Assembly: GCA_017601395.1 (NCBI GenBank)
Contig: JAFNIQ010000004.1
Span: forward strand, 1-57,735
DNA length: 57,735 bases
Reading direction: 5' to 3'
Source of the DNA: Candidatus Brockarchaeota archaeon
GTDB taxonomy: Archaea; Thermoproteota; EX4484-205; JAAOZP01
This document shows, one piece after another, positions 2,617 through 19,647 of this stretch. The notes beneath the pieces were generated by a model. It saw nothing but the letters and a program-made list of their open reading frames with translations. It had not been told where the DNA came from and searched no databases. Numbering within the stretch: position 1 is the stretch's first letter; each line of letters starts with the position of its first letter. A program made the position numbers and the translations under genes.

Positions 2617-2632
2617 CCTGCTTAAGGGAAAG

Positions 2633-2808
2633 GTTAATATAGGCCTCCCTGTGCGCACACTGCTTAGGAGGTGCGCTGAGTGTACCATAGTATTCACGCT
2701 CCAAGGGGGCGGGACACCGTCCGCCAACTGCAGGAGTCCCTCTGCAAGCCAAGCCTCCGCTAGGGGAACAAGGGTTTTCGAAAGGCTTTTTGCCGGGGGT
2801 GTTGTAAA
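2633..2808 (+). promoter_or_regulatory. ilvB promoter plus long 5' leader with blocks shared with the leuA leader
   Basis: TATA GTTAATATAG lies at 2633-2642 and an 8-bp palindrome GTGCGCAC at 2651-2658. AGGAGGTG lies at 2666-2673 and the box CCAAGGGGGCGGGAC at 2701-2715. A local hairpin GGCGGGAC-ACC-GTCCGCC follows, and a second SD (GGGGGTG) precedes the ilvB ATG at 2809. Confidence 0.55.
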
Positions 2809-4482
2809 ATGGTTTCAGGGTCTAGGCTGCTAGTGGAGAAGCTGAGGGAGAACGGGGTTAAAACCATCTTCGGAGTGCCTGGTGGGGCTGTGCTCCCATT
2901 CCTAGACGAGCTGTATAAGGCGAGCGACATAGAGTTCATTCTGACGAGGCATGAGCAGGGTGCTGCCCACATGGCTGACGGCTATGCCCGGGCGACCGGC
3001 ATGGTTGGCGTCGTCGTCGCGACTTCAGGGCCTGGCGCAACAAATCTTGCCACGGGGATTGCCAACGCCTACCTTGATTCCTCGCCGGTTTTAAGCATAG
3101 CCGGCCAGGTTGCGACGCCGCTCATAGGCTACGACGGCTTCCAGGAGGCTAATGTTTTCTCCATGATGATAGGGTTGACTAAGATGAACTTTCTACCTAG
3201 GGATTTGAACGAGCTTAACTCCGCCTTAGAGAACGCTTTCAAAATAGCCTTATCCGGAAGGCCTGGGCCTGTCCACATAGATGTCCCTAGGGATGTTCAG
3301 CTTATGGAGGGTGAGCCTGACGATGATTTCTACGTTTACTCTTATGCTCCCCCTTCTCCTTCCGACGAGGAGATTCTAGCAGCATCCAGGATGCTGGTTG
3401 AGGCTGAGAGGCCTGTGTTCATCGCCGGCGGCGGAGTCATAATATCAGGCGCATCCAGCGAGCTTGTTGCTCTCGCAGAGCTTCTAAACGCTCCCGTGGC
3501 GACGACGCTGATGGGTAAGGGGTGTATTCCCGAGGATCACCCGTTGTCTCTAGGCATAGTTGGGATGCACGGGAGGCTTGCCGCGATCAAGGCTGTTCAG
3601 GAGAGCGACCTTGTTTTCGCAGTGGGAATGAGGTTCAGCGACAGGACCACGGGTAAGCTAAGCGGCTTCGCCCCGGGGGCTAGGAAGATTCATGTTGACA
3701 TAGATAGGTCTGAGATCGGGAAGCTGCTTAAGCCCGACCTAGGCGTCGCCGGCGACGCTAAGCAGGTTTTAAGCAGGATCCGCAGCACGGTTCTCAGGCT
3801 TTTCCAGAAGGGTAAGGCTGGCACGTGGGGTGAAAGGGTGAGGCGGCTTAAGAAGGAGTCCGAGTTCCTCTATGATTACGATGCTGTCCCGGTTGACCCG
3901 AGTGCCGCCGTCAGGGTTTTGAACGACTATGTTAGGGCTGAAGACTTCGTGACGACGGAGGTGGGCCAGTGCCAGATGTATGCTTCGCTCCACTTCACAG
4001 CCAAGCGTCCAAGACAGTTCATATCCTCCGGCGGTCTTGGCACAATGGGCTTCGGGCTTCCGGCTGCGATCGGGGTTAAGGCAGCCTTCCCGGGGAGCCG
4101 TGTCTTCGACGTAGCTGGGGACGGGAGCTTCTTTATGACTTGCAACCAGCTTCCGGTTTCAGTAGACTATAATCTGCCGATCATAGTAATTGTTCTCAAC
4201 AATTATTTCCTGGGGATGGTTAGGCAGTGGCAGGAGCTTTTCTACGGAAGAAGGTATATTGCTGTGGACTTGAAGGGTAGGGCTGACATAGCTAGGGTTT
4301 CAGAGGGCTTCGGCGCCAGAGGGTTTAAAGTGACTAGGATAAGCGAGCTTAAAGAGGCTCTTGAGACCGCTTTGAAGCAGGATGAGGCGACTGTGTTGGA
4401 CGTTATTGTTGAGAGGGAGGATAATGTTTTCCCAATGGTTCCCCCGGCTTCCCCGCTTGACAGCGTCATCGTAAGGAGGTAG
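2809..4482 (+). CDS. ilvB: acetolactate synthase large (catalytic) subunit, TPP-dependent
   Basis: 557 aa with typical AHAS/TPP-enzyme N-terminus (GVKTIFGVPGGAVLPFLD, HEQGAAHMADGYARATG). TPP-binding region GLGTMGFGLPAAIG..GDGSF. Followed by ilvN, ilvC and ilvD. Confidence 0.93.
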   Translation: MVSGSRLLVEKLRENGVKTIFGVPGGAVLPFLDELYKASDIEFILTRHEQGAAHMADGYARATGMVGVVVATSGPGATNLATGIANAYLDSSPVLSIAGQVATPLIGYDGFQEANVFSMMIGLTKMNFLPRDLNELNSALENAFKIALSGRPGPVHIDVPRDVQLMEGEPDDDFYVYSYAPPSPSDEEILAASRMLVEAERPVFIAGGGVIISGASSELVALAELLNAPVATTLMGKGCIPEDHPLSLGIVGMHGRLAAIKAVQESDLVFAVGMRFSDRTTGKLSGFAPGARKIHVDIDRSEIGKLLKPDLGVAGDAKQVLSRIRSTVLRLFQKGKAGTWGERVRRLKKESEFLYDYDAVPVDPSAAVRVLNDYVRAEDFVTTEVGQCQMYASLHFTAKRPRQFISSGGLGTMGFGLPAAIGVKAAFPGSRVFDVAGDGSFFMTCNQLPVSVDYNLPIIVIVLNNYFLGMVRQWQELFYGRRYIAVDLKGRADIARVSEGFGARGFKVTRISELKEALETALKQDEATVLDVIVEREDNVFPMVPPASPLDSVIVRR

Positions 4483-4489
4483 GGCACGA

Positions 4490-4978
4490 ATGGCTTCAGA
4501 TGGGAATAAGAGGTTCATCGTGCTCAGGGTTCTCAACATGCCCGGCGTGATGGAGAGAATATCATCAATATTCGCGAGGAGGGCGATAAACATTGACACG
4601 ATCACTGTAGGCATGGTTAACGGAAAGACCTCTGAGATATCGCTGACCTTCAGCCTGCCACAGGAGAAGTTTGAAAACATCGTGAAGGTTCTTGAGAAAA
4701 ACCCGTGCGTCTTCGAGGTTAAGACGGGTTCTCTGGAGTACGACGTGATAAGGGAGGCCTTCGTAGCCGTGCTGAAGGATTGCGACACGAGTGTGAGCGA
4801 CTATATTAGGGTCAGGTATAGGGCTAGGACAACCCTGCTCAGCGGCTCCAGGCTTCTAGTAGAGCTCCTAGCCGACCCTAGGACGGTTGACGATTTCAAG
4901 GAGGAGTTTAAAGACCGTATTGAAAGCTTCTCGAGGAGCGGCGTGATGATTCACACTCTGAACCGTTTCAGAAAGTAA
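4490..4978 (+). CDS. ilvN: acetolactate synthase small (regulatory) subunit, ACT domain
   Basis: 162 aa. N-terminal ACT-type motif FIVLRVLNMPGVMERISSIFARRAINIDTITVG. Lies immediately downstream of ilvB. Confidence 0.85.
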   Translation: MASDGNKRFIVLRVLNMPGVMERISSIFARRAINIDTITVGMVNGKTSEISLTFSLPQEKFENIVKVLEKNPCVFEVKTGSLEYDVIREAFVAVLKDCDTSVSDYIRVRYRARTTLLSGSRLLVELLADPRTVDDFKEEFKDRIESFSRSGVMIHTLNRFRK

Positions 4979-5023
4979 AAAGCTTAAAAGAAAACGCGGC
5001 CGTGGAGTAGGGGTGACTGAGGG

Positions 5024-6007
5024 ATGGCTAGGATAATAAGGGATGACGAGATAAGCATTGAGCTGATTAAGAATAAGACTGTAGCCGTAATAGGCTACGG
5101 CTCCCAGGGTGAGGCTCAGGCTAAGAACATTAGGGACAGCGGCGTTAAGACGATAATAGGCTTGAGAAGAGAAGGCGCATCGTGGAAAAAGGCTTCCGAG
5201 GATGGTTTCGAAGTCTACGAGATAGGCGAGGCCGTTAAGAGGAGCAGCATTATTCTCATGCTAATACCTGATCCTGCTCAGCCTGCTGTCTACAGGGATC
5301 ATGTTGAGCCGAATGTTTCAAAGGGTTCAACACTGGTTTTCGCGCATGCTTTCAACGTTCACTACAGGCAGATAGTTCCCTCCCCCTGGCTTGACGTTGT
5401 ACTCGTGGCTCCTAAGGCGCCAGGCCCCGCGTTAAGGGACGCGTATGTCCGCGGAACCGGGGTCCCCGGCTTGATAGCTGTCCACCAGGATTACACTGGT
5501 AATGCTTCGAGAACAGTCAGGGAGGTTGCTAAGGCTGTTGGGCTGAGTAGAATCGGCCTGATAGAGACCTCCTTCAAGGAGGAGGTTGAGACAGACCTTT
5601 TCGGCGAGCAGGCTGTTCTCTGCGGCGGGGTCTCGTCGCTCATTAAAAGCGGCTTCGAAATCCTTGTTGAAGCAGGATACCAGCCTGAGGTTGCGTACTT
5701 CGAGGTTTTAAACGAGCTGAAGCTTATCGTCGACCTCATCTGGTCTAAAGGCTTATCCGGCATGTGGCAGGCTGTCAGCGACACCGCTAAGTACGGCGGT
5801 CTTACGCGCGGCCCACTCCTTATAGACGAGGATGTTAAGAGGAAGATGAGGAAGCTTCTTGAAGACGTTCAGACAGGTGTTTTCGCAAGGGAGTGGATAC
5901 TGGAGAACAGTTCCAACCAGGTTGTTCTGAAGACTCTTGTCGAAAGGGAGAGAAACCACATGATAGAGACAGTTGGGAGGAAAATAAGGTCGATGGTGTA
6001 CGGTTGA
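5024..6007 (+). CDS. ilvC: ketol-acid reductoisomerase
   Basis: 327 aa class I KARI. NADPH site VAVIGYGSQGEAQAKNIRDSG and the conserved block FGEQAVLCGG. Confidence 0.93.
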   Translation: MARIIRDDEISIELIKNKTVAVIGYGSQGEAQAKNIRDSGVKTIIGLRREGASWKKASEDGFEVYEIGEAVKRSSIILMLIPDPAQPAVYRDHVEPNVSKGSTLVFAHAFNVHYRQIVPSPWLDVVLVAPKAPGPALRDAYVRGTGVPGLIAVHQDYTGNASRTVREVAKAVGLSRIGLIETSFKEEVETDLFGEQAVLCGGVSSLIKSGFEILVEAGYQPEVAYFEVLNELKLIVDLIWSKGLSGMWQAVSDTAKYGGLTRGPLLIDEDVKRKMRKLLEDVQTGVFAREWILENSSNQVVLKTLVERERNHMIETVGRKIRSMVYG

Positions 6008-6014
6008 GAAAGGC

Positions 6015-7649
6015 TTGATGAGGAGCGACGCTGTAAAGAAGGGTGTGGACAGGGCTCCGCACAGGGCTCTGCTCCACGCCCTAGGATTGAGAAACGAGGA
6101 TTTCGACAAGCCTTTCATAGGCGTAGTTAACTCCTACACTAACGTTGTGCCGGGGCATGTTCACCTCGACGTGATCGCGGAAAACGTTTCCAAGGGTGTT
6201 AGAGACGGAGGCGGAGTTCCCTTCGTCTTCAACACGATCGCCGTCTGCGACGGTATTGCTATGAACCATGATGGGATGAGGTTCTCGCTGCCTAGCAGGG
6301 AGGTTATCGCGGACACGGTTGAGATAATGGTTTCGGCACACATGTTCGACGCCCTGGTCTTCATATCCTCGTGCGACAAGATTGTCCCCGGCCACCTGCT
6401 GGCGGCGGCAAGGCTGAACCTTCCATCCATATTCGTCACAGGCGGCCCCATGTATCCGGGCGTGTTCAAGGGGAGGAGGGTGGACCTGGTTTCAGTCTTC
6501 GAGGCCCTGGGAGAGTACCGTGAGGGGAGGATTACGCTTGAGGAGCTGAGGGAGTTTGAACGGGTCGCCTGCCCGGGTGCCGGGAGCTGCGCCGGCCTGT
6601 TCACCGCGAACACTATGGCCTGCCTTGTTGAGGCAATGGGCCTGTCGCTCCCGGGCATGGCTGCTACTCACGCTGAGGACGAGGGTAAGAAGACTCTCGC
6701 ATACGAGTCAGGGAGGAGGATAGTTGGGCTCTGGAGGGAGGGCTTAAGGTTCAAGGATATTGTTAAGCCTGAAAGCGTCGTCAACGCGATAATTGTCGAC
6801 AATGCTCTAGGAGGCTCCACCAACACTGTTCTCCATCTGAGTGCTCTAGCCAAGGAGGCTGGCTACGAGCTTTCGCTGAAGGCTTTCGACGAGCTGAGCA
6901 GGAGGATACCTACGCTGGTTCTGATGAGGCCGTCTGGCGAAGGGCTCATGTTTGACTTTTACAACGCTGGCGGAGTCCCCTCGCTTATGAGAGTCCTTAG
7001 AAAACATCTTAACCTTGATGTTCTAACCGTTACTGGTAAAAGCCTCAGGCAGCTTGTTGAAGAGTTTCCTGATCCGAGGGGCACGTTCATACGTTCCCCG
7101 GATAACCCTTACAGGAGTGAAGGGGGCATAGCGGTGCTATGGGGATCCCTGGCGCCAGAGGGTGCTGTGATTAAGCTCGCCGGGACTCCTGTTCAGCTTA
7201 GAACGTTCAGAGGCAGGGCTAGGGTTTTCAACTCTGAGGAGGAGGCTGTTGAAGCTCTTGAGAAAGAGGATTTCACGGTGAACACCGTGGTTGTCGTGCG
7301 CTACGAGGGGCTTTTAGGCGGCCCAGGGATGCGTGAAATGCTCATGCCAACTTCGCTAATAGTTGGAAGGAAGCTTGTTGAAAGGGTTGCGCTTGTCACT
7401 GACGGAAGGTTCTCCGGCGGCACGAGCGGTATTGCGGTAGGCCATGTTTCTCCGGAGGCGTACACTGGCGGACCCATAGCGCTCGTGGAGGATGGCGACG
7501 AGATACTTGTAGACGTGCCGGGCAGGAGGCTTGACCTGCTCGTCAACAGTGATGATCTTGAAGAAAGGAGGCGGAAATGGGCTCCGCCGGCTAAGAAGCT
7601 TGAAAGCCGGTTTCTAGCTAAGCTGAGGGGAAACAGGTTTTTCACCTAG
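6015..7649 (+). CDS. ilvD: dihydroxy-acid dehydratase
   Basis: 544 aa IlvD/Edd family. Motifs CDGIAMNHDGMRFSLPSRE, CDKIVPG and TDGRFSGGT. Confidence 0.93.
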   Translation: MMRSDAVKKGVDRAPHRALLHALGLRNEDFDKPFIGVVNSYTNVVPGHVHLDVIAENVSKGVRDGGGVPFVFNTIAVCDGIAMNHDGMRFSLPSREVIADTVEIMVSAHMFDALVFISSCDKIVPGHLLAAARLNLPSIFVTGGPMYPGVFKGRRVDLVSVFEALGEYREGRITLEELREFERVACPGAGSCAGLFTANTMACLVEAMGLSLPGMAATHAEDEGKKTLAYESGRRIVGLWREGLRFKDIVKPESVVNAIIVDNALGGSTNTVLHLSALAKEAGYELSLKAFDELSRRIPTLVLMRPSGEGLMFDFYNAGGVPSLMRVLRKHLNLDVLTVTGKSLRQLVEEFPDPRGTFIRSPDNPYRSEGGIAVLWGSLAPEGAVIKLAGTPVQLRTFRGRARVFNSEEEAVEALEKEDFTVNTVVVVRYEGLLGGPGMREMLMPTSLIVGRKLVERVALVTDGRFSGGTSGIAVGHVSPEAYTGGPIALVEDGDEILVDVPGRRLDLLVNSDDLEERRRKWAPPAKKLESRFLAKLRGNRFFT

Positions 7650-7652
7650 CCG

Positions 7653-8669
7653 ATGTCTGCAGCATGCTCAAAGGGTTTTTCGGTTAAGCTTGACCGTTTC
7701 GCAACCATTCGCCTGAGAGAAGGGGAAAAGCTTCTGAAAATAGGCTCCGATGAGGCTTTGGACTATCTTTTCATATCTCACGCTCACTTCGACCACCTGG
7801 GTAAGTCTGAAGCTAGGAGAACACTGGCGGTATGCTCGGAGGAGACTCTTCTGCTCTCGACTCTAAGGGGGCTTGAAGTCAAGCGTGCCGAGCAGAATCC
7901 TTTCATTCTTCTGGACTCAGGCCATATTCTAGGGTCTAAAGCCCTGCTCGTGGAAACCGATATGGGTGGAATACTGTACACGGGGGACGTTAACACTTCA
8001 CCGGTTGAAAGCATACCTAGGCAACGCTTCCCGAGGGTTCACACGCTGATAATAGAGTCTAACTACGGTCGTCCCAGCCTGGTTTTCCCCCCGAGGAGAC
8101 AGCTGATAGGTGAGATTGTCGACTACGTGAGTGAAACAGTCAGGAAGGGAAGGCCAATGGTTCTAATGGGGTATCCGCTGGGCAAGTCTCAGCATGTTCA
8201 AATGGTTCTTGATCCTGTTCTCCAGGGTGTTGTTGAAACATATGTTTCACCATCAATAGCTGAGTATAACAATGTGTACAGGCTTTTCTCCGTGGGAATA
8301 GGGGGGAAGAAGGTTTTCACACCTCAGTCCACGGAGCTGCCGGACGGCTCCTGGGCTCTATACTATCCAAATGTCTCAGGCAGGAATGCTTTCATGCAGC
8401 TTGTCAAAAGAAAGTATGGGGCTGTCTTCATAAGCTTCTCAGGCAGGTCGCTTTTCAACTGGTACAGCGAGGCGCTGGGCGTGGACAAGGCTTTCCCGTT
8501 GAGCGACCATGCTGATTTCAACGGCCTGATGGAAATCGTTAGGGAAACAAGTCCGGAGAAGGTTTTCACAGTCCATGGTTTCCCAGAGGAGTTTTCCAGG
8601 GAGCTTAGGAGGCTCGGCTACGATTCTAAACCAATACGTCCAAGCATGGAGGCCAGCTTCAGGCTTTAG
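7653..8669 (+). CDS. MBL-fold hydrolase, short beta-CASP-like nuclease
   Basis: HxHxDH motif (ISHAHFDHLG) and C-terminal LSDHADF..VHG, as in beta-CASP motifs. 338 aa. Starts 3 nt after the ilvD stop. Confidence 0.7.
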   Translation: MSAACSKGFSVKLDRFATIRLREGEKLLKIGSDEALDYLFISHAHFDHLGKSEARRTLAVCSEETLLLSTLRGLEVKRAEQNPFILLDSGHILGSKALLVETDMGGILYTGDVNTSPVESIPRQRFPRVHTLIIESNYGRPSLVFPPRRQLIGEIVDYVSETVRKGRPMVLMGYPLGKSQHVQMVLDPVLQGVVETYVSPSIAEYNNVYRLFSVGIGGKKVFTPQSTELPDGSWALYYPNVSGRNAFMQLVKRKYGAVFISFSGRSLFNWYSEALGVDKAFPLSDHADFNGLMEIVRETSPEKVFTVHGFPEEFSRELRRLGYDSKPIRPSMEASFRL

Positions 8670-11585: not shown

Positions 11586-12149
11586 TTGCTAATTAGAAAA
11601 GACAAGATAATAGGCCTACAGGTTTACGATAAGAGAGGCCGGTACGTCGGCACCGTTAAGGACATAGGGTTCGTACTAGGCGAGAACCTTGTTGGAATAG
11701 TTGTTGTCGGTAGAGACAATAGGGAGATGGAGTTCATCTGGAGCGAGGTTGACGCTGCTGAAGACATCGTCATACTGAAGAAGGAGGTTACTGTTCCAGC
11801 GGCGCCCCCTGTGCCGGCGAAGCCTGCTGTCGAAGCCCGTGAGGAGCCGAAGGCCCAGCTTAGGGAGCAGGTTTCGGCGAAGCCACCTGTCTATGCGCCG
11901 AGGGAGCCGGAGGTTCAGGTTGCTCCCGCTAGCAGTGCAGCCGGGGTTCCTGAAGTGCAGCCTTCTTTCAAGGAGCCTGCTGAACCCGATGAGGCAGAAC
12001 TGGAGCAGGTTGAAACCGTAGCCGCTACGCCGCGGCCTGCTGCCGACGAAGCTGGTGGTGCAGGCACTAAAACCTGTCCGAAATGCGGAGCCATTAACAA
12101 CGCGCGCTACAAATTCTGCTTCAGGTGCGGAACCAGGCTGCCCGCTTAG
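11586..12149 (+). CDS. PRC-barrel domain protein with Pro/Ala/Glu-rich linker and C-terminal zinc ribbon
   Basis: The N-terminus IIGLQVYDKRGRYVGTVKDIGF is PRC-barrel-like. The middle is low-complexity. The C-terminus carries CPKCG..x..YKFCFRCG. Confidence 0.6.
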   Translation: MLIRKDKIIGLQVYDKRGRYVGTVKDIGFVLGENLVGIVVVGRDNREMEFIWSEVDAAEDIVILKKEVTVPAAPPVPAKPAVEAREEPKAQLREQVSAKPPVYAPREPEVQVAPASSAAGVPEVQPSFKEPAEPDEAELEQVETVAATPRPAADEAGGAGTKTCPKCGAINNARYKFCFRCGTRLPA

Positions 12150-12991
12150 CTTAAAGGTTCTTTAAGAACTATTCCGCGGCCCCTCTCTATTTCAAACCTG
12201 TAGATTATCGGGTTCACCGCGGTCCAGCGCATCTTCCTTATGAACATCGTTCTTATAATGGAGTTTCCAACCCTAGATATGGAGAGTATTATGACGCCGC
12301 TCGCCAGAAACTCTTCAACACCATACCTGCTCATCATGTTCTCCCCGGTGGGGACCTCCGATGTTATCACGGTGGTTACGCCGAGCTTCTCCTCGATCGA
12401 GAATATGAGGCTCCTGATGTATTCTCTAACCCATGCAACCTCGTTCGAGTAGGTGGTTACCAGCGGGGCTATGGGATCTATGACAAGCCTCTTAGCCCCT
12501 ATTTCCCTCCTCCTCTTGTCAAGCTCCTCTATTATGTTGTTGACTATAGCGTCCATCTCTCTTCCCCACATCTTGGAGGTGAAGTATCTTCTAACCGGTA
12601 GGATCGCGAGCTTCCTTGTCTCCACAAGGGGCTGAAGATCCCAGCCGAAGTTCCTCACGTCCCTCACAAGCATCTCCGGCCTCTCGTCTATCGTAACATA
12701 GATCCCAGGCTCGTTGTTCTTAGCCCCGTATAGGAGGTACTGCAGGCTGAAAATCGTCTTCCCGGTTCCAGCCTCTCCAGCGAGCAGGTATGTTTTACCT
12801 GATTCGAAACCGCCCTCCAGGATCTCGTCTATAGCCTGGTTGCCTGTTGAAACCCTTCTCACATAGGAGACTCCCTTCCGCGGGGTTCCGCAGGCTGGGC
12901 AGAACTTGTATTCGGGGCTGAGTGAATGTCCACACTGCTCGCAGGAGTAAGTGCCTACAGCCTCCCTTCTAACCGCCTCTCTCCGCTGCAA
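12146..12991 (-). CDS. KaiC/RadA-paralogue type RecA-superfamily ATPase with N-terminal zinc ribbon
   Basis: Zinc ribbon CEQCG..YKFCPACG followed by Walker A LLAGEAGTGKT, in a KaiC-like single-domain layout (281 aa). Confidence 0.7.
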   Translation of the reverse strand: MQRREAVRREAVGTYSCEQCGHSLSPEYKFCPACGTPRKGVSYVRRVSTGNQAIDEILEGGFESGKTYLLAGEAGTGKTIFSLQYLLYGAKNNEPGIYVTIDERPEMLVRDVRNFGWDLQPLVETRKLAILPVRRYFTSKMWGREMDAIVNNIIEELDKRRREIGAKRLVIDPIAPLVTTYSNEVAWVREYIRSLIFSIEEKLGVTTVITSEVPTGENMMSRYGVEEFLASGVIILSISRVGNSIIRTMFIRKMRWTAVNPIIYRFEIERGRGIVLKEPLS

Positions 12992-13053: not shown

Positions 13054-13551
13054 TTAACCGTTTTTCTTCAAAAAATAGTTTATTAAACCTCCCGCCTCTA
13101 TTATTTTCATGATGAATTCAGGCATTTTATCGCAGGAAAACTTCTCCCCAGTTTTGATAATCGTTAAAACCCCGTTGGCAACGTCAAGCTCAGCCTCATC
13201 CCCATCCTTAAGCCTGTCTAAACCCTCAGCCTCCCGGATGACAAGCGCTGGAAGACCCAGGTTTATAGAATTCCTGTAAAAGATTCTCGCGAAGGACTTG
13301 GCGACTACGGCTTTCACACCGGAGTGTTTCAAAGCTATTACCGCGTGCTCCCTGGAGCTCCCCAGCCCGAAATTCTCACCGGCAACTATTATTGCTCCAC
13401 CAGACGCCTTCACCCTGAATTCAGGATAATAGTCTTCGAAAACATGTTTTGCAAGAACCTCAGCATCATGAGTCACCAAGTATCTTGCAGGTATTATAAC
13501 GTCTGTGTCCACATTGTCGCCAAGCCTAATAATCCTGCCGCGTATTTTCAA
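13054..13551 (-). CDS. leuD: 3-isopropylmalate dehydratase small subunit
   Basis: 165 aa aconitase swivel domain ([13 protein letters not shown]). Overlaps leuC by 4 nt. Confidence 0.88.
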
Positions 13552-14813
13552 GCCAGAAGCCTCCTCGGGTCAGTTATTTTCCCCTCCACCGCTGACGCAG
13601 CCACCGTAGCTGGGGAGGCGAGGAATACTCTACTCTTCTTATCGCCCATCCTGCCTATAAAGTTCCTGTTGCTGCTTGAAACCGCAACCTCGCCTTCTGC
13701 AAGAACCCCTCTGGACATTCCTAGGCATGCGCCGCACGTGGGGCTCGTCACTATTCCACCGGCTCGCACAATCTCCTCAATGATTCCTGCTCTCAAAGCC
13801 TCCGTGTACACTTTAACTGAAGCTGGACTGACCACTAGCCTTACACCCGGCGCGATCCTTCTCCCCCTAAGTATCCTGAAGGCTACGTGAAGATCGTCAA
13901 ACCTCCCGTTCGTGCAGGAGCCTAGGAAAGCCTGGTCTATCTCAAGGCCTTCAACCTCTGCGACGGGCTTAACGTTGTCCACGCTGTGCGGCAGGCTTAC
14001 AACAGGCTCCAGGTTTGAAACATCCATCTCGATCTTCTCAAGGTCTGCGTCGTGGTCGCTTCTTACTTCCAGCAGCCCGCTGCATTTCCCATAGTGCTCA
14101 GCGTACTCAATGCTTTTAGAATCTGTTTGAACGATCCCGGTTTTAGCACCAGTCTCCACGGAGAGGTTTGCAAGAGTAAGGCGTTCAGACAGGGACATCA
14201 TTCTTACTGTTTCACCAGAGTACTCCAGAGCCTTGTAGGTTGCCCCATTGCTGCCGATTTTCCCGACGATGCTTAAAGCAACGTCTTTCGCGAAAACTCC
14301 TTTCCCAAGCCTACCGTTAATTTCGACCAGCAGTGTTTCAGGAACCCTCAGCCATATTTCTCCAGTCGCTAGTACGACAGCAGCATCAGTAGAGCCGACG
14401 CCTATTCCAATTGCGCCGGTCGCCCCAGCTGTGCAAGTATGGCTGTCCGCGCCGACTATCAGGAAGCCGGGCACGTCGAAGCCTTCTTCGAAGAGGACTT
14501 GGTGAGCTATGCCTCCCCTCCCTATTTCGAAGAAGTTTCTTACCCCGTGTTTTCTAACGAAGCTTCTCATCCTCCTCATCTGGCTGGCCAGCTCTATCGT
14601 GCTCGGGGGGACATCATGGTCGAAAACCACTATCACCCTGCTGGGATCCCAGAGTTTCCCAGAGATTTTTTCAAACTGTTCGACAGCCAGCGGCCCAGTC
14701 ACCTCGTGCAGCATTAGAAAATCCACCTTAGCCTCCACTATTTCACCCACTTCCACACGGGGCCTGCCTGTTTTCCTGGAAACCACTTTCTGAATTGCCG
14801 TTAAACCAGTCAT
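13548..14813 (-). CDS. leuC: 3-isopropylmalate dehydratase large subunit
   Basis: 421 aa aconitase-family catalytic domain (GADSHTCT, GSCTNGR, CGACLG). Overlaps leuA and leuD. Confidence 0.9.
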   Translation of the reverse strand: MTGLTAIQKVVSRKTGRPRVEVGEIVEAKVDFLMLHEVTGPLAVEQFEKISGKLWDPSRVIVVFDHDVPPSTIELASQMRRMRSFVRKHGVRNFFEIGRGGIAHQVLFEEGFDVPGFLIVGADSHTCTAGATGAIGIGVGSTDAAVVLATGEIWLRVPETLLVEINGRLGKGVFAKDVALSIVGKIGSNGATYKALEYSGETVRMMSLSERLTLANLSVETGAKTGIVQTDSKSIEYAEHYGKCSGLLEVRSDHDADLEKIEMDVSNLEPVVSLPHSVDNVKPVAEVEGLEIDQAFLGSCTNGRFDDLHVAFRILRGRRIAPGVRLVVSPASVKVYTEALRAGIIEEIVRAGGIVTSPTCGACLGMSRGVLAEGEVAVSSSNRNFIGRMGDKKSRVFLASPATVAASAVEGKITDPRRLLA

Positions 14814-16348
14814 CCGCCAGCCCTCTTCCTAATCTGCAGAAGCCTGTTGGCCCCATTCAGTATCGCGTAAACCCCTGCTAGCACAATGTCCTCGCTGAAT
14901 CCTTTCGCAGTCACGCTCCGCCCCTCATCGTCTGAAACCCTGACCGTGACCTCTGCAAGCGCTTCTGTGCCTCCCGTTATCGCCTCCAGCCTGAAGCTTT
15001 CAAGCTTTATCTTAACCAGGTCGCCGAGAAGCCTGCTGACCGCCTTCATCGAAGCATCTATCGGCCCGACTCCGAACTCAGCTCCCCTCCACGCCTGTTC
15101 CCCTCTCCTTATCTTTATTGTTGCCGTCGGCGTCGTGTTCAACCCTGTAACCACCAGAAGCTCTTCAAGCTCGATGCGGTCCTTCTCACCGACCCCGTAT
15201 CCTATAACGCTTTCAGCTATCGAGGCGAGTTCCGTGTCAGTAACCTTCTTACCCTTGTCACCAATATCCTTAACTATTTTAAGAACCTGTTTCAACTCCT
15301 CCTCGCTCAGCCTATATCCCATTTCCTCAAGCTGCGCTGAAATCCCGTGGACGCCGGCGTGCTTCCCAGCCACCAGCCTTCTCCGAGCCCCGACGAACCC
15401 TGGGTCTATCGGCTCATAAGTCTCTGGGGATGCTATTACGCCATGAGTATGGATCCCGCTCTCATGGGAGAAAGCGTTTTCCCCAACTATAGGCTTGTTC
15501 ACAGGTATTGCTATGCCGGTTATCAGGGAGACCAGCCTGCAGGTGTTGTATATCTCTTTAAACTTCAAGCCTGTTTCAACACCGTATAATACTTTCAGGG
15601 AAACCGCCACCTCCTCCAGGCTAGCGTTTCCAGCCCTCTCTCCAAGCCCGTTGACTGTTACATGCGCCTCAGCAGCCCCTCCCTCAATGCCTGCAAGCGT
15701 GTTCGCGACAGCTAGGCCCATGTCGTTGTGACAGTGTACCGCAACCGGGATCCTCAGGGCTTCACGAACCCTCTTAACAATCTCCCTCATGGCGAAGGGT
15801 GTTGCAACGCCAACAGTATCAGGAATATCAACTGTGCTTGCCCCAGCTTCTTCAACCCTCCTGTAAAACTCCACTAGGAAATCAATGCTCGTCCTAGTCG
15901 CGTCCTCGGCTGAAAACTCTATTTTCATACCGTAGGATTTAGCGAGGTCTATGGATTCAACCGCCCTGCGTACGGCTTCATCCCTGCTTATCTGCAGCTT
16001 CTTATTCAAATGTATGTCAGAGGTCGCTATGAAGAGATGTATTCTGCCTGCGCCGGTTGAAGCGGCCTTCTCAATATCCTCCTTTAGACATCTGGATAGG
16101 GCAGCGATCTCCGCGTTTAACCCTTCTTTAACTATCAGCCTAATAGCCTCCTCCTCGCCACGCGATGTCGCCGGGAAGCCTGCTTCTAATACGGGTACTC
16201 CAAGCGCGTCCAGCTGCCTCGCTATCTTAAGCTTGTCCTCAGGCGTAAGCGCGACCCCCGGAGTCTGCTCACCGTCCCTTAGAGTAGTGTCGAAAATAAC
16301 CACCCTGTCAGGTATTTTAGCCTCAGTAATATATCCTCTCCAAACCAT
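14810..16348 (-). CDS. leuA: 2-isopropylmalate synthase (with C-terminal LeuA regulatory domain)
   Basis: 512 aa. Motifs IFDTTLRDGEQTPG and HCHNDMGLAVANTLAG. The long C-terminal domain is typical of IPMS. Confidence 0.9.
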   Translation of the reverse strand: MVWRGYITEAKIPDRVVIFDTTLRDGEQTPGVALTPEDKLKIARQLDALGVPVLEAGFPATSRGEEEAIRLIVKEGLNAEIAALSRCLKEDIEKAASTGAGRIHLFIATSDIHLNKKLQISRDEAVRRAVESIDLAKSYGMKIEFSAEDATRTSIDFLVEFYRRVEEAGASTVDIPDTVGVATPFAMREIVKRVREALRIPVAVHCHNDMGLAVANTLAGIEGGAAEAHVTVNGLGERAGNASLEEVAVSLKVLYGVETGLKFKEIYNTCRLVSLITGIAIPVNKPIVGENAFSHESGIHTHGVIASPETYEPIDPGFVGARRRLVAGKHAGVHGISAQLEEMGYRLSEEELKQVLKIVKDIGDKGKKVTDTELASIAESVIGYGVGEKDRIELEELLVVTGLNTTPTATIKIRRGEQAWRGAEFGVGPIDASMKAVSRLLGDLVKIKLESFRLEAITGGTEALAEVTVRVSDDEGRSVTAKGFSEDIVLAGVYAILNGANRLLQIRKRAGG

Positions 16349-16514
16349 TACGAACCCCTCCTAAAACGGGTTTAAAACGATATTGTTTTTCAACAGTCTG
16401 TGATAGAGGTGTCGCTGTCTCTGTAACGCAGGTAGTCTCGCCCCCTTTGGGCTTTACTGGTCATGCGTATGATACACACCTCCTTGGCGGAGACCACTCC
16501 GCCACTATATTAAC
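16349..16514 (-). promoter_or_regulatory. leuA promoter plus long 5' leader with blocks shared with the ilvB leader
   Basis: Read on the minus strand: TATA GTTAATATAG (16514-16505), palindrome GGCGGAG-TGGT-CTCCGCC (16503-16486) and AGGAGGTG (16484-16477). The box CCAAAGGGGGCGAGAC follows (16450-16435). A second SD (AGGAGGGG) precedes the leuA ATG at 16348. Confidence 0.55.
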
Positions 16515-16524
16515 TTTACTACGG

Positions 16525-17525: not shown

Positions 17526-17600
17526 TGCGGCGCCCGGGATTTGAACCCGGGATTCCCAGCTTGGAAGGCTGGTGTCCTAACCAGGCTAGACCAGCGCCGC
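17526..17600 (-). tRNA. tRNA-Gly (anticodon UCC)
   Basis: Reverse complement GCGGCGCTGGTCTAGCCTGGTTAGGACACCAGCCTTCCAAGCTGGGAATCCCGGGTTCAAATCCCGGGCGCCGCA. Anticodon stem CCAGC/GCTGG with loop CTTCCAA. Regular D and T arms. Confidence 0.92.
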
Positions 17601-17644
17601 GGGTACCGGAGTTAGAACAGGCTGGATGGTTAAAAGTTTTATCC
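17601..17644 (-). promoter_or_regulatory. tRNA-Gly promoter block, identical to 688..731
   Basis: The same 44 nt as upstream of tRNA-Gly(CCC). Identity stops exactly at 17644, where the cassette ORF stop codon begins. Confidence 0.6.
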
Positions 17645-18549
17645 TACTTTTTCCGTTCATCTATCATTCTTATCAGTTGAAGCTTCTCCATGTGCTCCGG
17701 CTTCCTAGAGCCTATTTCCTCTATGAATTTCAGGTGGTCCTCTGCAGGAATAGTAAAACTATGTAGATCGCGCCATCCTGGTTTCCTATGATCTGTGCGA
17801 ATCTCATGAGGATGAAATCCTAAGTCTATGAACATCTGTCTTACTTCTTCCAACCCCTCTTTGTATGTTGAGTAGATGCGAATACTATGAGCACGTTCTC
17901 CTGTCATGGAGATATTTCCGTCGCCAGAGAAGAAACCTCTTAAGTATGCCCTTTTCCCTTCTTCGTCTAAATGGGCTACAGGCGGATGAAATTCAAAGTC
18001 CTCTGGCCCCTTAATGCCCAGATTTGCTAAATCGTAAGCTATCTTCTTGCTATATATCCTTGGCTTATGGTAGGCTTTCTCTCCTTCTCCCGTGTCTTCA
18101 AAACGGATATAATCGCGGGCAGTTTCATGGTAGACCTCTCTAATTAAGTTAATGAAAAGTTCAGCGAGTTCCTTATCCTCACTATCGAAATAAACCTCAT
18201 ATACGCTTTTCTCACTATTAATGTAAATTCCACCGTCAGAGGCTATTAAACCGCATAACTCTGCCTTTTCTGGAGTAAGTATTTCCCTAACTTTTCCATC
18301 TAAAAATTCCAAACTCATTCCTTTACTCAGCTTAAAAACAATCCTGCCTCCTTCAACCTTGGCTTCAGAAAAGATTCCGATAACTTTACCTTCTTTAAGT
18401 AGTTCATATCCACCGCCTTCTGCTTCGCGAACCTCGTATCTCTCAAAGGTTCTTAAGACATGAAAGGACTCTTCTTCTCCTTTCCCTCGTACTTGCTCTC
18501 CCTCAAAGAATCTCCTTTCATACTGCTTAACCCTAGAGCCTCCGCCCAT
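17644..18549 (-). CDS. double-motif LAGLIDADG endonuclease-like protein with ~95-aa N-terminal extension
   Basis: Two LAGLIDADG motifs (LCGLIASDGGIY and YLRGFFSGDGNIS) about 110 aa apart. The C-terminal FIEEIGSRK..KL is typical of the family. The ATG directly abuts the stop of the upstream gene (TAAATG). Confidence 0.75.
   Translation of the reverse strand: MGGGSRVKQYERRFFEGEQVRGKGEEESFHVLRTFERYEVREAEGGGYELLKEGKVIGIFSEAKVEGGRIVFKLSKGMSLEFLDGKVREILTPEKAELCGLIASDGGIYINSEKSVYEVYFDSEDKELAELFINLIREVYHETARDYIRFEDTGEGEKAYHKPRIYSKKIAYDLANLGIKGPEDFEFHPPVAHLDEEGKRAYLRGFFSGDGNISMTGERAHSIRIYSTYKEGLEEVRQMFIDLGFHPHEIRTDHRKPGWRDLHSFTIPAEDHLKFIEEIGSRKPEHMEKLQLIRMIDERKK
17652..17704. repeat. left copy of the 53-bp direct repeat
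   Basis: TCCGTTCATCTATCATTCTTATCAGTTGAAGCTTCTCCATGTGCTCCGGCTTC, identical to 20558-20610. It encodes the C-terminal ..PEHMEKLQLIRMIDE of the LAGLIDADG ORF. Confidence 0.95.
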
Positions 18550-19647
18550 TTATCTTCCTCTCGTTAAAGCTCTATTCATGTCGAGCAGGTTGTGGAGAGC
18601 AAGTGTCTTGAGCCCCAGCTCCTTATCACTTAACATCAGATCGATCAATTCCTGTGGCATCATCCCTCTACATGCTTCGCAAGTACACTCCTCGAATCTG
18701 ATTTCCGGATCTTTGAAGTTGTACAATTTTCCTCCTTTAAAGTAATGTCCTTGTTTTGCTTCTAGAAACCAAGAAAGATTGCTGTAGCTACCTATCTCCC
18801 TGTACTTAAGCCTGCGGCCGATACCGTAGAGCAGCAATTCGAAATCCGTTCTAGTCCTCTTAGAAAACCACTTCAGGCTCATCAGGGCGCTGGGCAAAAG
18901 GTCACCCAGGAGATTGTCTTCGAAAAGCTCCCTCGCGGGCATCGCGAAGGAAACGTAGCCCATTTCAACCTGCTTCCTAATAGCCCAATCTATTTGAAGA
19001 TGGTTGGCGCCCTTGATTAAGCCGATTAACGGGATGTCAAGCTTGAGGAAGTCGTTTGCGAGGGAAACGAGCCTTACGGTTTGAGACCATGATAGAAAAA
19101 GTGGGTCATCCACGTAAGTATAGTTATCCGGAATCATTGTAGCATCCGGCCCAAGGTTTTTAACCAGCCTGAAATAATCCTTAAACCTAAGATTATCGAG
19201 AAGTTCGTCGGGCATCACTAATGAAAGGAAAATCCTTCCATTAAACCCTAGGAAGTCATGTAAGCCTTTTAAGGAAACTTCTTCAAGGAGGGTTTTGTCA
19301 ACCAAAAGCTGCCAAAGAGGAACAAATATTTCTGGCAATTCTACGCCATGTCTCCAGAACCATGACTTTTTATCACTAATATCGATTTGAGGGATGAATC
19401 TTTCGAAACCGATTTTGGTCATCAACTTTTTGCTTAATGAAGACATTTGCACAAAGGATCTATTCGCTGTTTTAATCGGGCAATAAGGCTGGAGTCTGCA
19501 GAAAGACTTGGGATAGGTTATTCCAGTATATTGGAAACCTCTCTGGCATTGTGCTACGAGGCACATTTTGAAAGAGCAACCGCGGCAGAGCTTATGAAAA
19601 TACGGACATTCCTCGCAATAAAAGCCGCACCATCCTTTTCTGGGCAA
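18550..19647 (-). CDS. tRNA-guanine-transglycosylase (TGT) superfamily protein, DpdA-like, with N-terminal Cys cluster
   Basis: The C-terminal CTCEAC-x25-H(NL) matches the TGT zinc site CxCxxC-x25-H exactly. It is preceded by SNLSWFLEAKQGHYF, resembling the TGT substrate-pocket strand. The N-terminus carries CGFYCEEC..C..C..C..C. Confidence 0.6.
   Translation of the reverse strand: MPRKGWCGFYCEECPYFHKLCRGCSFKMCLVAQCQRGFQYTGITYPKSFCRLQPYCPIKTANRSFVQMSSLSKKLMTKIGFERFIPQIDISDKKSWFWRHGVELPEIFVPLWQLLVDKTLLEEVSLKGLHDFLGFNGRIFLSLVMPDELLDNLRFKDYFRLVKNLGPDATMIPDNYTYVDDPLFLSWSQTVRLVSLANDFLKLDIPLIGLIKGANHLQIDWAIRKQVEMGYVSFAMPARELFEDNLLGDLLPSALMSLKWFSKRTRTDFELLLYGIGRRLKYREIGSYSNLSWFLEAKQGHYFKGGKLYNFKDPEIRFEECTCEACRGMMPQELIDLMLSDKELGLKTLALHNLLDMNRALTRGR

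Follow-up and report, generated by a model that had tools for sequence, protein, structure and literature searches.

The 57,735-nt stretch of DNA analysed here (the window) comes from what we take to be an uncultured hot-spring archaeon, Brockarchaeota-like, and carries an ilvB-ilvN-ilvC-ilvD operon on the forward strand and a leuA-leuC-leuD operon on the reverse strand, both assigned by NCBIfam matches (Table 1). Most first genes of this genome look leaderless: in the window they mostly have a TATA box 28–37 nt before the start codon and no Shine–Dalgarno sequence (SD), which makes the long, SD-led leaders of ilvB and leuA exceptional here.

An earlier note on this DNA had described both leaders as untranslated stretches that share three ordered blocks, GTTAATATAG (block 1), AGGAGGTG (block 2) and CCAAGGGGGCGGGAC or CCAAAGGGGGCGAGAC (block 3 of ilvB and leuA, respectively), and had proposed that they form one cis-acting ilv/leu leader. 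All of the blocks were confirmed in the sequence, as were the separate SD and the ATGGTTT start of each main open reading frame (2809 and 16348). The exact block 1 10-mer occurs at just two sites in the window (2633–2642 on the forward strand and 16514–16505 on the reverse strand), and block 3, with one mismatch or none, is likewise confined to its two sites (2701–2715, forward; 16450–16435, reverse). The distance between blocks 2 and 3, given as 27 versus 26 nt, reflects the block edges chosen; from the end of GGAGGTG to AGG it is 30 nt in either case. The leaders are paralogues, copies of a single element of about 140 nt that is co-transcribed with each operon. With somewhat better than even confidence, we read the three blocks, in order, as a promoter, a ribosome-binding site and the core codons of a short upstream open reading frame (uORF) for a leader peptide.

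Table 1 Features of the ilvB and leuA operons and their leaders in the window.
Feature	Positions	Strand	Basis
ilvB-ilvN-ilvC-ilvD operon body	2809–7649 (2809–4482, 4490–4978, 5024–6007, 6015–7649)	+	NCBIfam matches
ilvB promoter: purine-rich BRE-like GGGAAAGG and TATA box TTAATATA (2634–2641); block 1	2626–2641	+	Alignment, RNA of relative L125
ilvB TATA-to-start-site spacer: untranscribed, variable, often with GCCC..GGGC inverted repeat	2642–2665	+	Alignment, zero RNA depth over L125 equivalent
ilvB SD1 AGGAGGTG, mRNA 5′ end; block 2	2666–2673	+	Conservation, L125 RNA
ilvB uORF (putative leader peptide), GTG..TAG, 27 codons, VYHSIHAPRGRDTVRQLQESLCKPSLR then stop	2680–2763	+	Start and open frame conserved
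ilvB core codons GCT CCA AGG GGG CGG GAC ACC GTC CGC (A-P-R-G-R-D-T-V-R), holding block 3; Val GTC at 2719–2721	2698–2724	+	Codon table
ilvB anti-SD GCCTCC, complementary to both SD1 and SD2; its 3′ end is 2 nt, and the first base of CCTCC 7 nt, ahead of the uORF stop	2753–2758	+	Conservation, RNAalifold
ilvB SD2 (GGGGGTG, 2795–2801) and start ATG (2809–2811)	2795–2811	+	Sequence
leuA-leuC-leuD operon body	13054–16348 (16348–14810, 14813–13548, 13551–13054)	−	NCBIfam matches
leuA promoter: A-rich BRE-like flank and TATA box TTAATATA (16513–16506); block 1	16506–16520	−	Alignment
leuA TATA-to-start-site spacer: untranscribed, hairpin-like GGCGGAG..CTCCGCC (partner proposed for block 3 in the earlier note)	16485–16505	−	Alignment, folding
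leuA SD1 AGGAGGTG; block 2	16477–16484	−	Alignment
leuA uORF (putative leader peptide), ATG..TGA, 24 codons, MTSKAQRGRDYLRYRDSDTSITDC then stop	16390–16464	−	Start and open frame conserved
leuA core codons GCC CAA AGG GGG CGA GAC TAC CTG CGT (A-Q-R-G-R-D-Y-L-R), holding block 3; Leu CTG at 16431–16429	16426–16452	−	Codon table
leuA anti-SD ACACCTCT; first base of CCTCT 17 nt ahead of the uORF stop	16405–16412	−	Conservation, folding
leuA SD2 (AGGAGGGG, 16362–16355) and start ATG (16348–16346)	16346–16362	−	Sequence

We collected 38 distinct leaders from relatives and metagenomes, 19 ahead of ilvB and 19 ahead of leuA. Nineteen of the 38 (8 ilvB and 11 leuA) were found through protein anchors alone, free of motif bias, and the remainder were fetched by block 3 alone. 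The block 3 search of metagenomes gave roughly 27 loci, all of which carry blocks 1 and 2 as well, and because the search used block 3 only, their first two blocks and their ORFs count as independent observations. The promoter, the SD, an in-frame start and a frame open through the R-G-R-D core are kept in all 38 leaders; it is this conservation, not the statistics of the window, that places the architecture beyond chance, although the leader sequences are not independent of one another because the clade is narrow. Only ilvB or leuA lies downstream of the 38 leaders, and in a six-frame search of 410 kb of clade DNA, SD-preceded RGRD matches occurred in these leaders alone. Neither that codon-independent search nor the metagenome scan yielded a third copy of the element; all 28 other matches in the scan fell in unrelated DNA that lacks both the TTAATATA box and the uORF. 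The shared leader proposed earlier is thus borne out as conserved, transcribed and, in the DNA examined, specific to these two operons. The blocks are present in the 19 leaders found by protein anchors. More diverged leaders, sought as a means of telling peptide constraint from RNA constraint, were not found: LeuA identity among the relatives drops from 82% directly to 62%, and the syntenic relative at 62% (L138) has a 64-nt intergenic region without a uORF; because this relative lacks the leader, the element is confined to one narrow clade. A further candidate leuA locus (L141, P0015) was discarded, as it is located in a lysW/lysX cluster.

Block 1 turned out to be promoter and not, as previously supposed, part of the leader. 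The TTAATATA box with an A/G-rich 5′ flank is unchanged in 19/19 ilvB leaders, the leuA promoter is unchanged in 19/19 leuA leaders, and the combined form (G)GAAAG[AG]TTAATATA, a TATA octamer behind a purine-rich BRE as in archaeal promoters, is found in 38/38. RNA of a relative supports this assignment. At the ilvB leader L125, strand-specific sense reads of metatranscriptome X24 begin at 1470–1473, where SD1 occupies 1471–1478 and the TATA box 1437–1444. This 5′ end, measured in the relative and not in the organism of the window, lies 26–28 nt past the last base of the box (1444), and upstream of it the depth is zero, in keeping with archaeal promoters, in which transcription starts about 22–27 nt downstream of an untranscribed box. 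Coverage in X24, of which about 5% was sampled, runs unbroken from the leader into ilvB, and an independent RNA contig from X25 covers L125 1472–1627. These two data sets place the 5′ end; contigs from X20 and X21 do not resolve ends, and X22 and X23 contain no reads of this organism. For leuA, leader RNA of low depth agrees, and at L089 depth is zero over the equivalent of the TATA and spacer bin. Transcription starts just upstream of the main ATGs, named in the earlier note as the outcome that would leave the blocks outside the RNA, were not found: the ilvB leader is transcribed in L125, and an apparent leaderless start at 1598 (X25, 90% likeness), 4 nt before the ilvB ATG, is an assembly boundary formed by a 30-nt (k−1) unitig overlap ahead of a strain variant at 1628. 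At 85% likeness, one contig spans 1472–1627. The leader was not over-represented relative to the gene body in the metatranscriptome RNA of L125, giving no sign of premature termination under those in situ conditions.

The interval between TATA box and start site frequently holds inverted repeats. The ilvB spacer folds significantly better than shuffles in 6/19 leaders, with z about −3 for the repeats of L007, L086 and L115; the leuA spacer of the window has a strong repeat (z = −4.8), yet p ≤ 0.05 is reached in 5/19 leuA leaders and the sequence is variable. Because the spacer is not transcribed, we rejected these repeats, which exceed shuffles in 11/38 leaders (p ≤ 0.05), as RNA structure. 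The same consideration bears on the pairing suggested earlier between the G-rich box and a GTC(T)CCGCC segment. Complementary segments do exist in the window (2719–2725, and within 16495–16486), but the leuA partner falls in the untranscribed, freely varying spacer and the ilvB partner reads GTCCACC in 14/19 leaders, so the pairing is not supported.

The transcript therefore begins at block 2 with a perfect SD, followed 6 or 12 nt on by a start codon and a conserved open frame, and for this reason the stretch is not appropriately called untranslated. SD1, as [AG]GGAGGTG, is present in 38/38 leaders. A GTG stands 6 nt past it in 19/19 ilvB and 8/19 leuA leaders; leuA leaders without that GTG have an in-frame ATG 12 nt past the SD (n = 9) or, through a 2-nt deletion upstream of the ATG, 10 nt past it (n = 2). 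In two leaders a start lies 4 nt past SD1, with an in-frame ATG also at 10 nt. The ilvB frame is open in 19/19 leaders, 16 of them with 27 codons and 3 with 20, and the leuA frame is open in 19/19, with stops in the alternative frames in 12/18 and 15/18. The sole indel inside the ORF, 6 nt long, is in frame (leuA, L089 versus L090), and indels of 1, 2, 5 and 9 nt all fall outside it. Among the possibilities raised earlier for the leader (RNA structure, regulator site or uORF), the uORF fits best.

What is conserved in the predicted peptide is the motif A-x-R-G-R-D-x-[VL]-[RHL], which is constrained at the nucleotide level too; the N terminus and tail vary in sequence and length. Variation within the core consists of synonymous third positions (GCT/GCC, CGG/CGA and GAC/GAT): in ilvB, AGG and GGG are unchanged while CGG/CGA and GAC/GAT swap, and leuA leaders have CGA in 18 and CGG in 1, and GAC in 14 and GAT in 5. 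In ilvB these changes are no proof of coding, because they also coincide with the loop of a hairpin that might form locally. The second core Arg is always CGR, which accounts for 1–5% of Arg codons here versus 61% for AGG. The codon two after RGRD is GTC (Val) in 19/19 ilv leaders and CTG (Leu) in 19/19 leu leaders, although for half of the leaders the search pattern itself fixed the S-T-S form of this codon, as it did AGG and GGG. The ilv leader has one invariant Val codon, besides one Leu codon, the leu leader one invariant Leu codon, and neither has a run. We discarded the idea that these Arg-rich leaders sense Arg: just the R-G-R residues are conserved, and the metabolic logic is absent. 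Outside the core there is no third-position bias, with variable columns by codon position of 9/8/11 and 9/13/12, compared with 5/3/13 in the ilvB gene.

Near its end, each uORF carries an anti-SD. CCTCC is found in 19/19 ilvB leaders, including the 3 whose ORF stops too early to contain it, and CCUCY in 17/19 leuA leaders, the other two pairing with SD1 through G·U wobbles and one U-A to C-G double change. In RNAalifold alignments, SD1:anti-SD pairing accounts for 100% of cells in ilvB versus 43–64% when slid, and 99% in leuA versus 38–71%. Across both families 8/14 pairs of this helix never vary and one pair shows a double change, a result that 37/500 shuffles equal. The anti-SD can also pair with SD2 (−8 to −16 kcal/mol), although partition-function folding with a ribosome at the start, sensor codon or stop, at 37 and 70 °C, gave no clear SD2 switch (accessibility 0.33 to 0.45). 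Consensus folds consist of the SD1:anti-SD helix and small local hairpins, with no terminator or antiterminator hairpins among them; one local hairpin is still drawn by RNAalifold in ilvB, with the base that varies in the GTCCACC segment bulged, and leuA has no equivalent. The leaders contain short T4–T6 runs before SD2 and no bacterial-type terminator. At the Rfam gathering score the window matched tRNAs only and the leaders went unmatched; at E ≤ 10 the ilvB leader had 0 matches and the leuA leader two chance matches to eukaryotic families. An AT-rich palindrome lies 3′ of the leuA uORF.

Taking these features together, we lean towards a translated cis-regulatory leader peptide ahead of the ilv and leu operons. 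RNA polymerase would start about 25 nt after TTAATATA, so that the mRNA would begin at AGGAGGUG, and ribosomes would load at the SD at its 5′ end and translate the uORF. The sensing step may be passage through Ala-x-Arg-Gly-Arg-Asp-x-(Val or Leu), a segment in which the ribosome would meet, in order, an SD-like AGGGGG run, the rarest Arg codons of the genome (CGA/CGG) and a single codon for the pathway product (Val in ilv, Leu in leu). Where the ribosome stands could then decide whether the downstream CCUCC anti-SD is available to SD1 or SD2 as a pairing partner, or whether transcription continues, and operon expression would in this way be tied to the supply of branched-chain amino acids. A sharper version, which we offer only tentatively and consider less likely to be right than wrong, is a first archaeal leader-peptide attenuation, in which the A-x-RGRD peptide, the SD-like run and a rare Arg codon would keep the ribosome at one sensor codon, for Val in ilvBNCD and for Leu in leuACD, with SD/anti-SD pairing as output. 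Were that single-codon reading true, one codon would replace the codon runs of bacterial attenuators.

Several observations suit a reading in which the RNA itself matters more than the peptide. Block 3 and its flanks might be an RNA motif, bound by a protein or small molecule or recognised as an internal SD-like site by the 16S 3′ end, with the open frame tolerated or secondary; control would then depend on recognition of the RNA and on the SD1/anti-SD helix. In the 5′ half of the ilvB leader, 18 codons show 0 synonymous changes, whereas 20 codons of ilvB show 6 (Fisher p = 0.02), a degree of conservation that exceeds coding need and points to a constraint on RNA or DNA, which could be the real function. 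AGG and GGG are never swapped for synonymous codons in the 19 unbiased leaders, the 30-nt spacing from SD to block 3 is constant even where the start codon has moved, the anti-SD is kept inside or outside the ORF, and the uORF tail has no coding signature. Yet block 3 has no consistent secondary structure common to both families, covariation is near nil (one double change), single-sequence folds give z-scores of −0.4 and −2.1, and Rfam offers no match at E ≤ 10. Translation is, moreover, to be expected of an mRNA whose 5′ end is a perfect SD with a start codon at a suitable distance, and an RNA motif leaves unexplained both the in-frame ATG that replaces a lost GTG and the in-frame indels of the ORF. 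On this evidence we regard it as unlikely.

Control might instead be mainly transcriptional, through a DNA-binding factor (Lrp-like or other) acting on the promoter, the spacer inverted repeats or a block 3 operator, with the uORF incidental. The BRE/TATA boxes are identical at both operons, the inverted repeats sit at a common archaeal repressor position and are strong in some leaders, and the palindrome after the leuA uORF would be a further candidate site. The repeats are nevertheless inconsistent (11/38 at p ≤ 0.05) and unconserved in sequence, unlike a factor site, and block 3 is not palindromic; since the SD, the upkeep of the start codon, the open frame and the conserved anti-SD would also go unexplained, we judge this improbable. 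That the small ORFs encode trans-acting micropeptides, for example modulators of the pathway enzymes, seems to us very improbable indeed. They are conserved, have strong ribosome-binding sites and stand at the operon head, but conservation extends to only about nine residues, the C-terminal half drifts in sequence and length (20 versus 27 codons), RGRD occurs in no real protein in the 410 kb of clade DNA, and the element is absent from a syntenic relative with the same enzymes.

Read as leader peptides, the uORFs have familiar bacterial counterparts. In bacteria, the control of amino-acid operons by leader peptides is textbook knowledge, and the branched-chain operons of E. coli (ivbL-ilvBN, ilvL-ilvGMEDA and leuL-leuABCD; Rfam Leu_leader) have such attenuators. 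To our knowledge, no bacterial leader contains the R-G-R-D core, which sets the present leaders apart. The Corynebacterium ilvBNC leader is also a bacterial leader-peptide transcription attenuator (PMC11857589). As in these systems, a short and here putatively translated ORF with its own ribosome-binding site stands in the leaders of ilvB- and leuA-headed operons, and the Val and Leu codons of the ilv leader and the Leu codon of the leu leader resemble the bivalent and monovalent logic of E. coli. Unlike bacterial attenuators, the archaeal leaders have a single Val or Leu codon in place of a run, lack terminator and antiterminator hairpins, show no sequence or Rfam similarity to them and belong to an archaeal host with a different termination mechanism.

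A second likeness is to arrest-peptide and translational-attenuation leaders such as ermCL/ermBL, cat86, cmlA, TnaC, SpeFL, SecM, MifM and the fungal arginine attenuator peptide, the last a uORF through which an amino acid exerts feedback on the gene for its own synthesis. Among the arrest motifs known to us, none is matched by A-x-RGRD-x-V/L. Here too a short uORF has a small conserved peptide core while the rest drifts, and SD/anti-SD complementarity could make initiation at the main ORF depend on where the ribosome stands, as in translational attenuation (comparison set in PMC10219788, PMC8429421 and PMC5499644). The present core differs in being constrained at the nucleotide level too, modelling gave no clear occlusion switch, and stalling is a conjecture in our case.

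Internal SD-like elements can act on elongating ribosomes, as at the prfB/RF2 frameshift site. The AGGGGG run similarly lies within an ORF, at a short, constant distance (6 to 9 nt) upstream of the critical codon; unlike the prfB/RF2 site, it comes with no sign of frameshifting and no overlapping frame, and we regard it only as a candidate pausing device. With riboswitch and T-box leaders the element shares its place as a cis-acting 5′ leader of amino-acid biosynthesis operons, but a conserved multi-helix fold and an Rfam match are lacking, covariation is near nil, and its roughly 140 nt, mostly ORF, leave little room for an aptamer.

Ribosome-profiling studies have produced catalogues of archaeal uORFs (PMC11456600, PMC7261190), and the literature searched contained no conserved, pathway-specific archaeal leader peptide. 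Leader-peptide-type control at archaeal ilv and leu operons thus looks previously undescribed, and looks like a variant on the bacterial leader-peptide theme. If the element is functional, ribosome-mediated sensing of amino-acid supply would have arisen, or persisted, in Archaea as a compact single-codon form, and at roughly 140 nt it would be compact and portable enough to serve as a test case for how archaeal ribosomes and polymerases couple translation to regulation.

The ilvB and leuA operons are each preceded by the same three ordered blocks, and re-reading the window sequence confirmed the positions given for them in the earlier note. Block 1, a BRE/TATA promoter, has exact matches at only two places in the window, and block 3, allowing at most one mismatch, likewise occurs there only in the ilvB and leuA leaders (the stretches from promoter to ATG). 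Each main ORF also has its own Shine-Dalgarno sequence (SD2) and the ATGGTTT (Met-Val) start that the note described. ATGGTTT opens both main ORFs in every in-clade leader, an invariance that in the metagenome set partly reflects its use as an anchor, whereas leuA of a syntenic outgroup starts ATGGCGTGG. Elsewhere in the window, the first gene of a transcription unit mostly lacks an SD and has its start codon 28-37 nt past a TATA-like box; the long, SD-led architecture of ilvB and leuA is unusual in the window.

Features of the two leaders and their surroundings (window coordinates unless a relative's locus is named)
Feature	Position	Strand	Sequence
Block 1, ilvB	2633-2642	+	GTTAATATAG
Block 1, leuA	16514-16505	-	GTTAATATAG
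Block 2 (SD1), ilvB	2666-2673		AGGAGGTG
Block 2 (SD1), leuA	16484-16477		AGGAGGTG
Block 3, ilvB form	2701-2715		CCAAGGGGGCGGGAC
Block 3, leuA form	16450-16435		CCAAAGGGGGCGAGAC
ilvB uORF	2680-2763		VYHSIHAPRGRDTVRQLQESLCKPSLR*
leuA uORF	16464-16390		MTSKAQRGRDYLRYRDSDTSITDC*
ilvB start	2809-2815		ATGGTTT
leuA start	16348-16342		ATGGTTT
ilvB-ilvN-ilvC-ilvD	2809-7649	+	
leuA-leuC-leuD	16348-13054	-	
Spacer inverted repeat, ilvB	2643-2657	+	
Spacer inverted repeat, leuA	16503-16486	-	GGCGGAG-TGGT-CTCCGCC
AT-rich near-palindrome	16389-16366	-	AAAACAATATCGTTTT
Metallo-beta-lactamase/beta-CASP-type nuclease	7653-8669	+	
Second beta-CASP gene	24614-25870	-	
KaiC-like ATPase	12146-12991	-	
PRC-barrel gene	11586-12149	+	
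LAGLIDADG-domain ORF	17644-18549	-	
365-aa ORF	18550-19647	-	
tRNA-Gly(TCC)	17526-17600		
TATA box, L125	1437-1444		
SD1, L125	1471-1478		
Split leuD, L138	5772-6324		
Intact leuD, L139	4949-5446		

Metatranscriptomes mapped to relatives' leaders locate the RNA 5′ end. Reads of X24, a metatranscriptome of the hot-spring study that also yielded the closest MAG and one that contains a strain of the L094/L125 group, are strand-specific and sense on L125, a relative's ilvB locus. Depth is zero up to 1465, the earliest reads begin at 1470-1473, and depth then rises across about one read length to a plateau within ilvB; reads do not pile up at the ATG of this gene. Set against the L125 TATA box and SD1, these reads put the RNA 5′ boundary 26 nt past the box, at the opening bases of the SD. 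Contigs of X25, an independent sediment metatranscriptome compared with L125 at 90% and 85% likeness, at first seemed contradictory: at 90% they begin at L125 1598, 4 nt before the ATG, and at 85% a contig covers 1472-1627. The two contigs 'starting' at 1598 share exactly 30 nt with this spanning contig, up to a strain variant at 1628; 1598 is therefore a unitig boundary and was rejected as a transcription start. Exactly at 1472 the spanning contig has a chimeric junction, which again marks an RNA end; its 35 extra 5′ bases resemble ilvB coding sequence ~60-85 nt into the gene (GGAATACCTGGAGGAGCAGTACTTGC) and were probably joined at the RNA 5′ end by template switching or assembly. The leuA data are thin and agree with this: they comprise sense reads that cross the uORF and reach roughly to the SD, one read beginning at the SD of L109, two sense reads on the window's own leader and none in the TATA/spacer bin of L089, with leader depth about equal to gene depth.

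Because the RNA 5′ end lies at SD1, block 1 and the spacer are promoter DNA, and blocks 2 and 3 lie within an mRNA leader of ~140 nt. Block 1, which the earlier note had counted as part of the leader, thus falls outside it, with zero RNA depth upstream of the SD in L125; a start just before the ilvB ATG, which would have contradicted a leader, is not what X24 and X25 show. In situ leader depth does not exceed gene-body depth, which argues against strong premature termination under those conditions, and a search of the leader for a bacterial-type terminator found none.

A protein-anchored scan with IlvD recovered nine close relatives (L001 to L009; 82-99% IlvD identity), uncultured archaea labelled Brockarchaeota, Thermoproteota or Nitrososphaerota; the remaining matches were all ≤56% identical. 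Both leaders, blocks included, are present in every relative covering the regions. The metagenome query was limited to block 3 plus the bases directly flanking it, which makes blocks 1 and 2, and any ORF, independent observations. Among 55 loci, ~27 were genuine, every one with TTAATATA, an SD and a small ORF, and all upstream of ATGGTTTCAGG (ilvB) or ATGGTTTGGAGAGG (leuA); the other 28 were unrelated sequence with neither the TTAATATA box nor a small ORF. Including one LeuA-anchored locus (L136), the set comprises 38 distinct leaders (19 ilvB, 19 leuA), half of them (19/38) gathered without motif bias. LeuA identity among relatives drops from 82% straight to 62%, and the databases contain no set of more diverged leaders able to split coding from RNA constraint. 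At 62%, in the syntenic outgroup L138, the intergenic region is just 64 nt long; it includes a TATA box and lacks a uORF. Judged from these sequences, the leader is restricted to a single narrow clade.

After block 2 come a start codon and an open frame, the small upstream ORF (uORF), in which block 3 reads (Ala)-x-Arg-Gly-Arg-Asp. This frame is open in 38/38 leaders, and in leuA leaders the other two frames contain stops in 12/18 and 15/18. The start is GTG, 6 nt past the SD, in 19/19 ilvB and 8 leuA leaders; the other 11 leuA leaders have lost it and carry an in-frame ATG instead, 12 nt past the SD in 9 and 10 nt in 2, the latter pair having a 2-nt deletion upstream of the ATG and also a GTG just 4 nt past the SD. 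The sole uORF-internal indel is of 6 nt, and indels of 1, 2, 5 and 9 nt fall before the start or after the stop. Core variation (GCT/GCC, CGG/CGA, GAC/GAT) is all synonymous, and the second Arg is always CGR, the genome's rarest Arg codons (CGA 1%, CGG 5%, versus AGG 61%). Two codons past Asp stands GTC (Val) in 19/19 ilv leaders and CTG (Leu) in 19/19 leu leaders; ilv leaders have a further invariant Leu codon three codons beyond the Val.

What the constraint acts on bears on two alternatives. The uORF varies freely at its N-terminus and in its tail, its stop comes after only 20 codons in three ilvB leaders, and third-position bias outside the core was looked for and absent, indicating that the peptide tail is not under selection; that the products are trans-acting micropeptides is very improbable. 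Among 12 closely related ilvB leaders, synonymous changes affect 0/18 uORF codons versus 6/20 of the first ilvB codons (Fisher p = 0.02), so nucleotide-level constraint, too, acts on part of the leader. Both kinds of signal seem to be present in the alignments: as marks of a translated ORF, an SD that opens the mRNA, start codons that are maintained, indels that keep the frame and core changes that are synonymous, and as sequence-level conservation the constant AGGGGG, fixed 30-nt spacing and anti-SD (a CCUCC-type segment complementary to SD1). An RNA motif with an incidental ORF would account for the latter. RNAalifold finds the same long-range helix independently in both families, between SD1 and a CCUCC/CACCUCU anti-SD near the uORF 3′ end. 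CCUCY stands at a fixed offset from the stop in 36/38 leaders and is kept in three where an early stop puts it outside the ORF; the two leuA leaders without literal CCUCY keep pairing through C-to-U changes (G.U wobbles) and, at one pair, a double change from U-A to C-G. Pairing in the helix reaches 99-100%, versus 38-71% in slid controls, but covariation support is weak because 8/14 pairs (both families together) never vary, and 37/500 shuffles do equally well. The anti-SD could just as well pair with SD2 and, in ilvB, also with block 3; constraint folding with a ribosome at various positions gave no clear switch, single-sequence folds are unremarkable (z = -0.4 and -2.1), and an Rfam search matched no family. 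The hairpins that the earlier note drew from the G-rich box fail, the leuA partner lying in the untranscribed, variable spacer and the ilvB partner reading GTCCACC in 14/19 leaders; RNAalifold still draws the local ilvB hairpin, with the mismatching base bulged and the synonymous core changes in its loop, and no leuA equivalent. We regard the incidental-ORF reading as possible but rather doubtful.

Control at the promoter, by a DNA operator or regulator, is less probable still and in our view unlikely. Inverted repeats lie between TATA box and transcription start in the window and in seven other loci (L007, L083, L086, L089, L102, L115, L125; GCCCC..GGGGC in several ilvB promoters), differing in sequence between strains and often keeping dyad symmetry; being untranscribed, they may be operators bound by a regulator, or may have arisen by chance. 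Each BRE/TATA starts only ~10-17 nt past the stop of a co-oriented upstream gene (2616-2634; 16525-16513), these genes being an unknown 232-aa ORF and a MarC/NAAT-family transporter. In L125 no RNA covers the sequence ahead of the ilvB leader, so read-through is absent there, implying termination and re-initiation within <20 nt. Directly after the leuA uORF stop comes the near-palindrome AAAACAATATCGTTTT, perfect in L003 and L009, and then TTTTAAAC, ~29 nt before the ATG, the usual TATA-to-start distance of leaderless genes here; this stretch may act as a weak internal promoter, as a binding site for a factor or as a T-rich signal for termination.

Several neighbouring genes deserve mention. 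The nuclease gene starting 4 nt past ilvD on the same strand, with weak matches to ligase-associated exonuclease and aCPSF1 models, looks like a fifth ilv operon gene; the window holds a second beta-CASP gene. After leuD lies a KaiC-like ATPase with an N-terminal zinc ribbon, convergent with a PRC-barrel gene, and conservation of the leuA-leuC-leuD-KaiC-like-PRC order as far out as the 62% outgroup (L138/L139) suggests that they are functionally linked to the leu operon. leuD is two ORFs (67 and 120 aa) in L138 and intact (165 aa) in the sister contig L139, the split likely being a frameshift or assembly error. Near a tRNA-Gly, a LAGLIDADG-domain ORF abuts, directly downstream, a 365-aa ORF without Pfam match; the pair could be a homing-endonuclease or mobile element remnant.

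The data establish the promoter, where the RNA begins, that the leader is transcribed together with ilvB, and that it is conserved and specific to these operons. The earlier proposal of a shared cis-regulatory leader holds in its main part, with the uORF the best of its options, and loses its hairpins and block 1. We give somewhat better than even weight to a translated cis-regulatory leader peptide. Functionally nearest are the bacterial ivbL, ilvL and leuL leader peptides and arrest-peptide translational attenuators, but the leaders are not classical attenuators, because they have neither the codon run nor terminator/antiterminator hairpins. Ribosome profiling has yielded catalogues of uORFs in archaeal 5′ UTRs (PMC11456600), and according to reviews regulation by leader peptides occurs in all domains (PMC10219788); our literature search turned up no conserved leader peptide ahead of branched-chain amino-acid operons in archaea. 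As a leader peptide, the uORF would be translated by ribosomes loading at SD1, and sensing would occur as they pass first the SD-like AGGGGG run, then the rare CGR codon and then the single codon for Val or Leu. Ribosome position would then set the partner of the anti-SD, or read-through, and hence operon expression, and by analogy control could run in either direction: through a starvation-induced stall, as in bacterial attenuators, or through amino-acid-induced arrest, as in TnaC and the fungal AAP.
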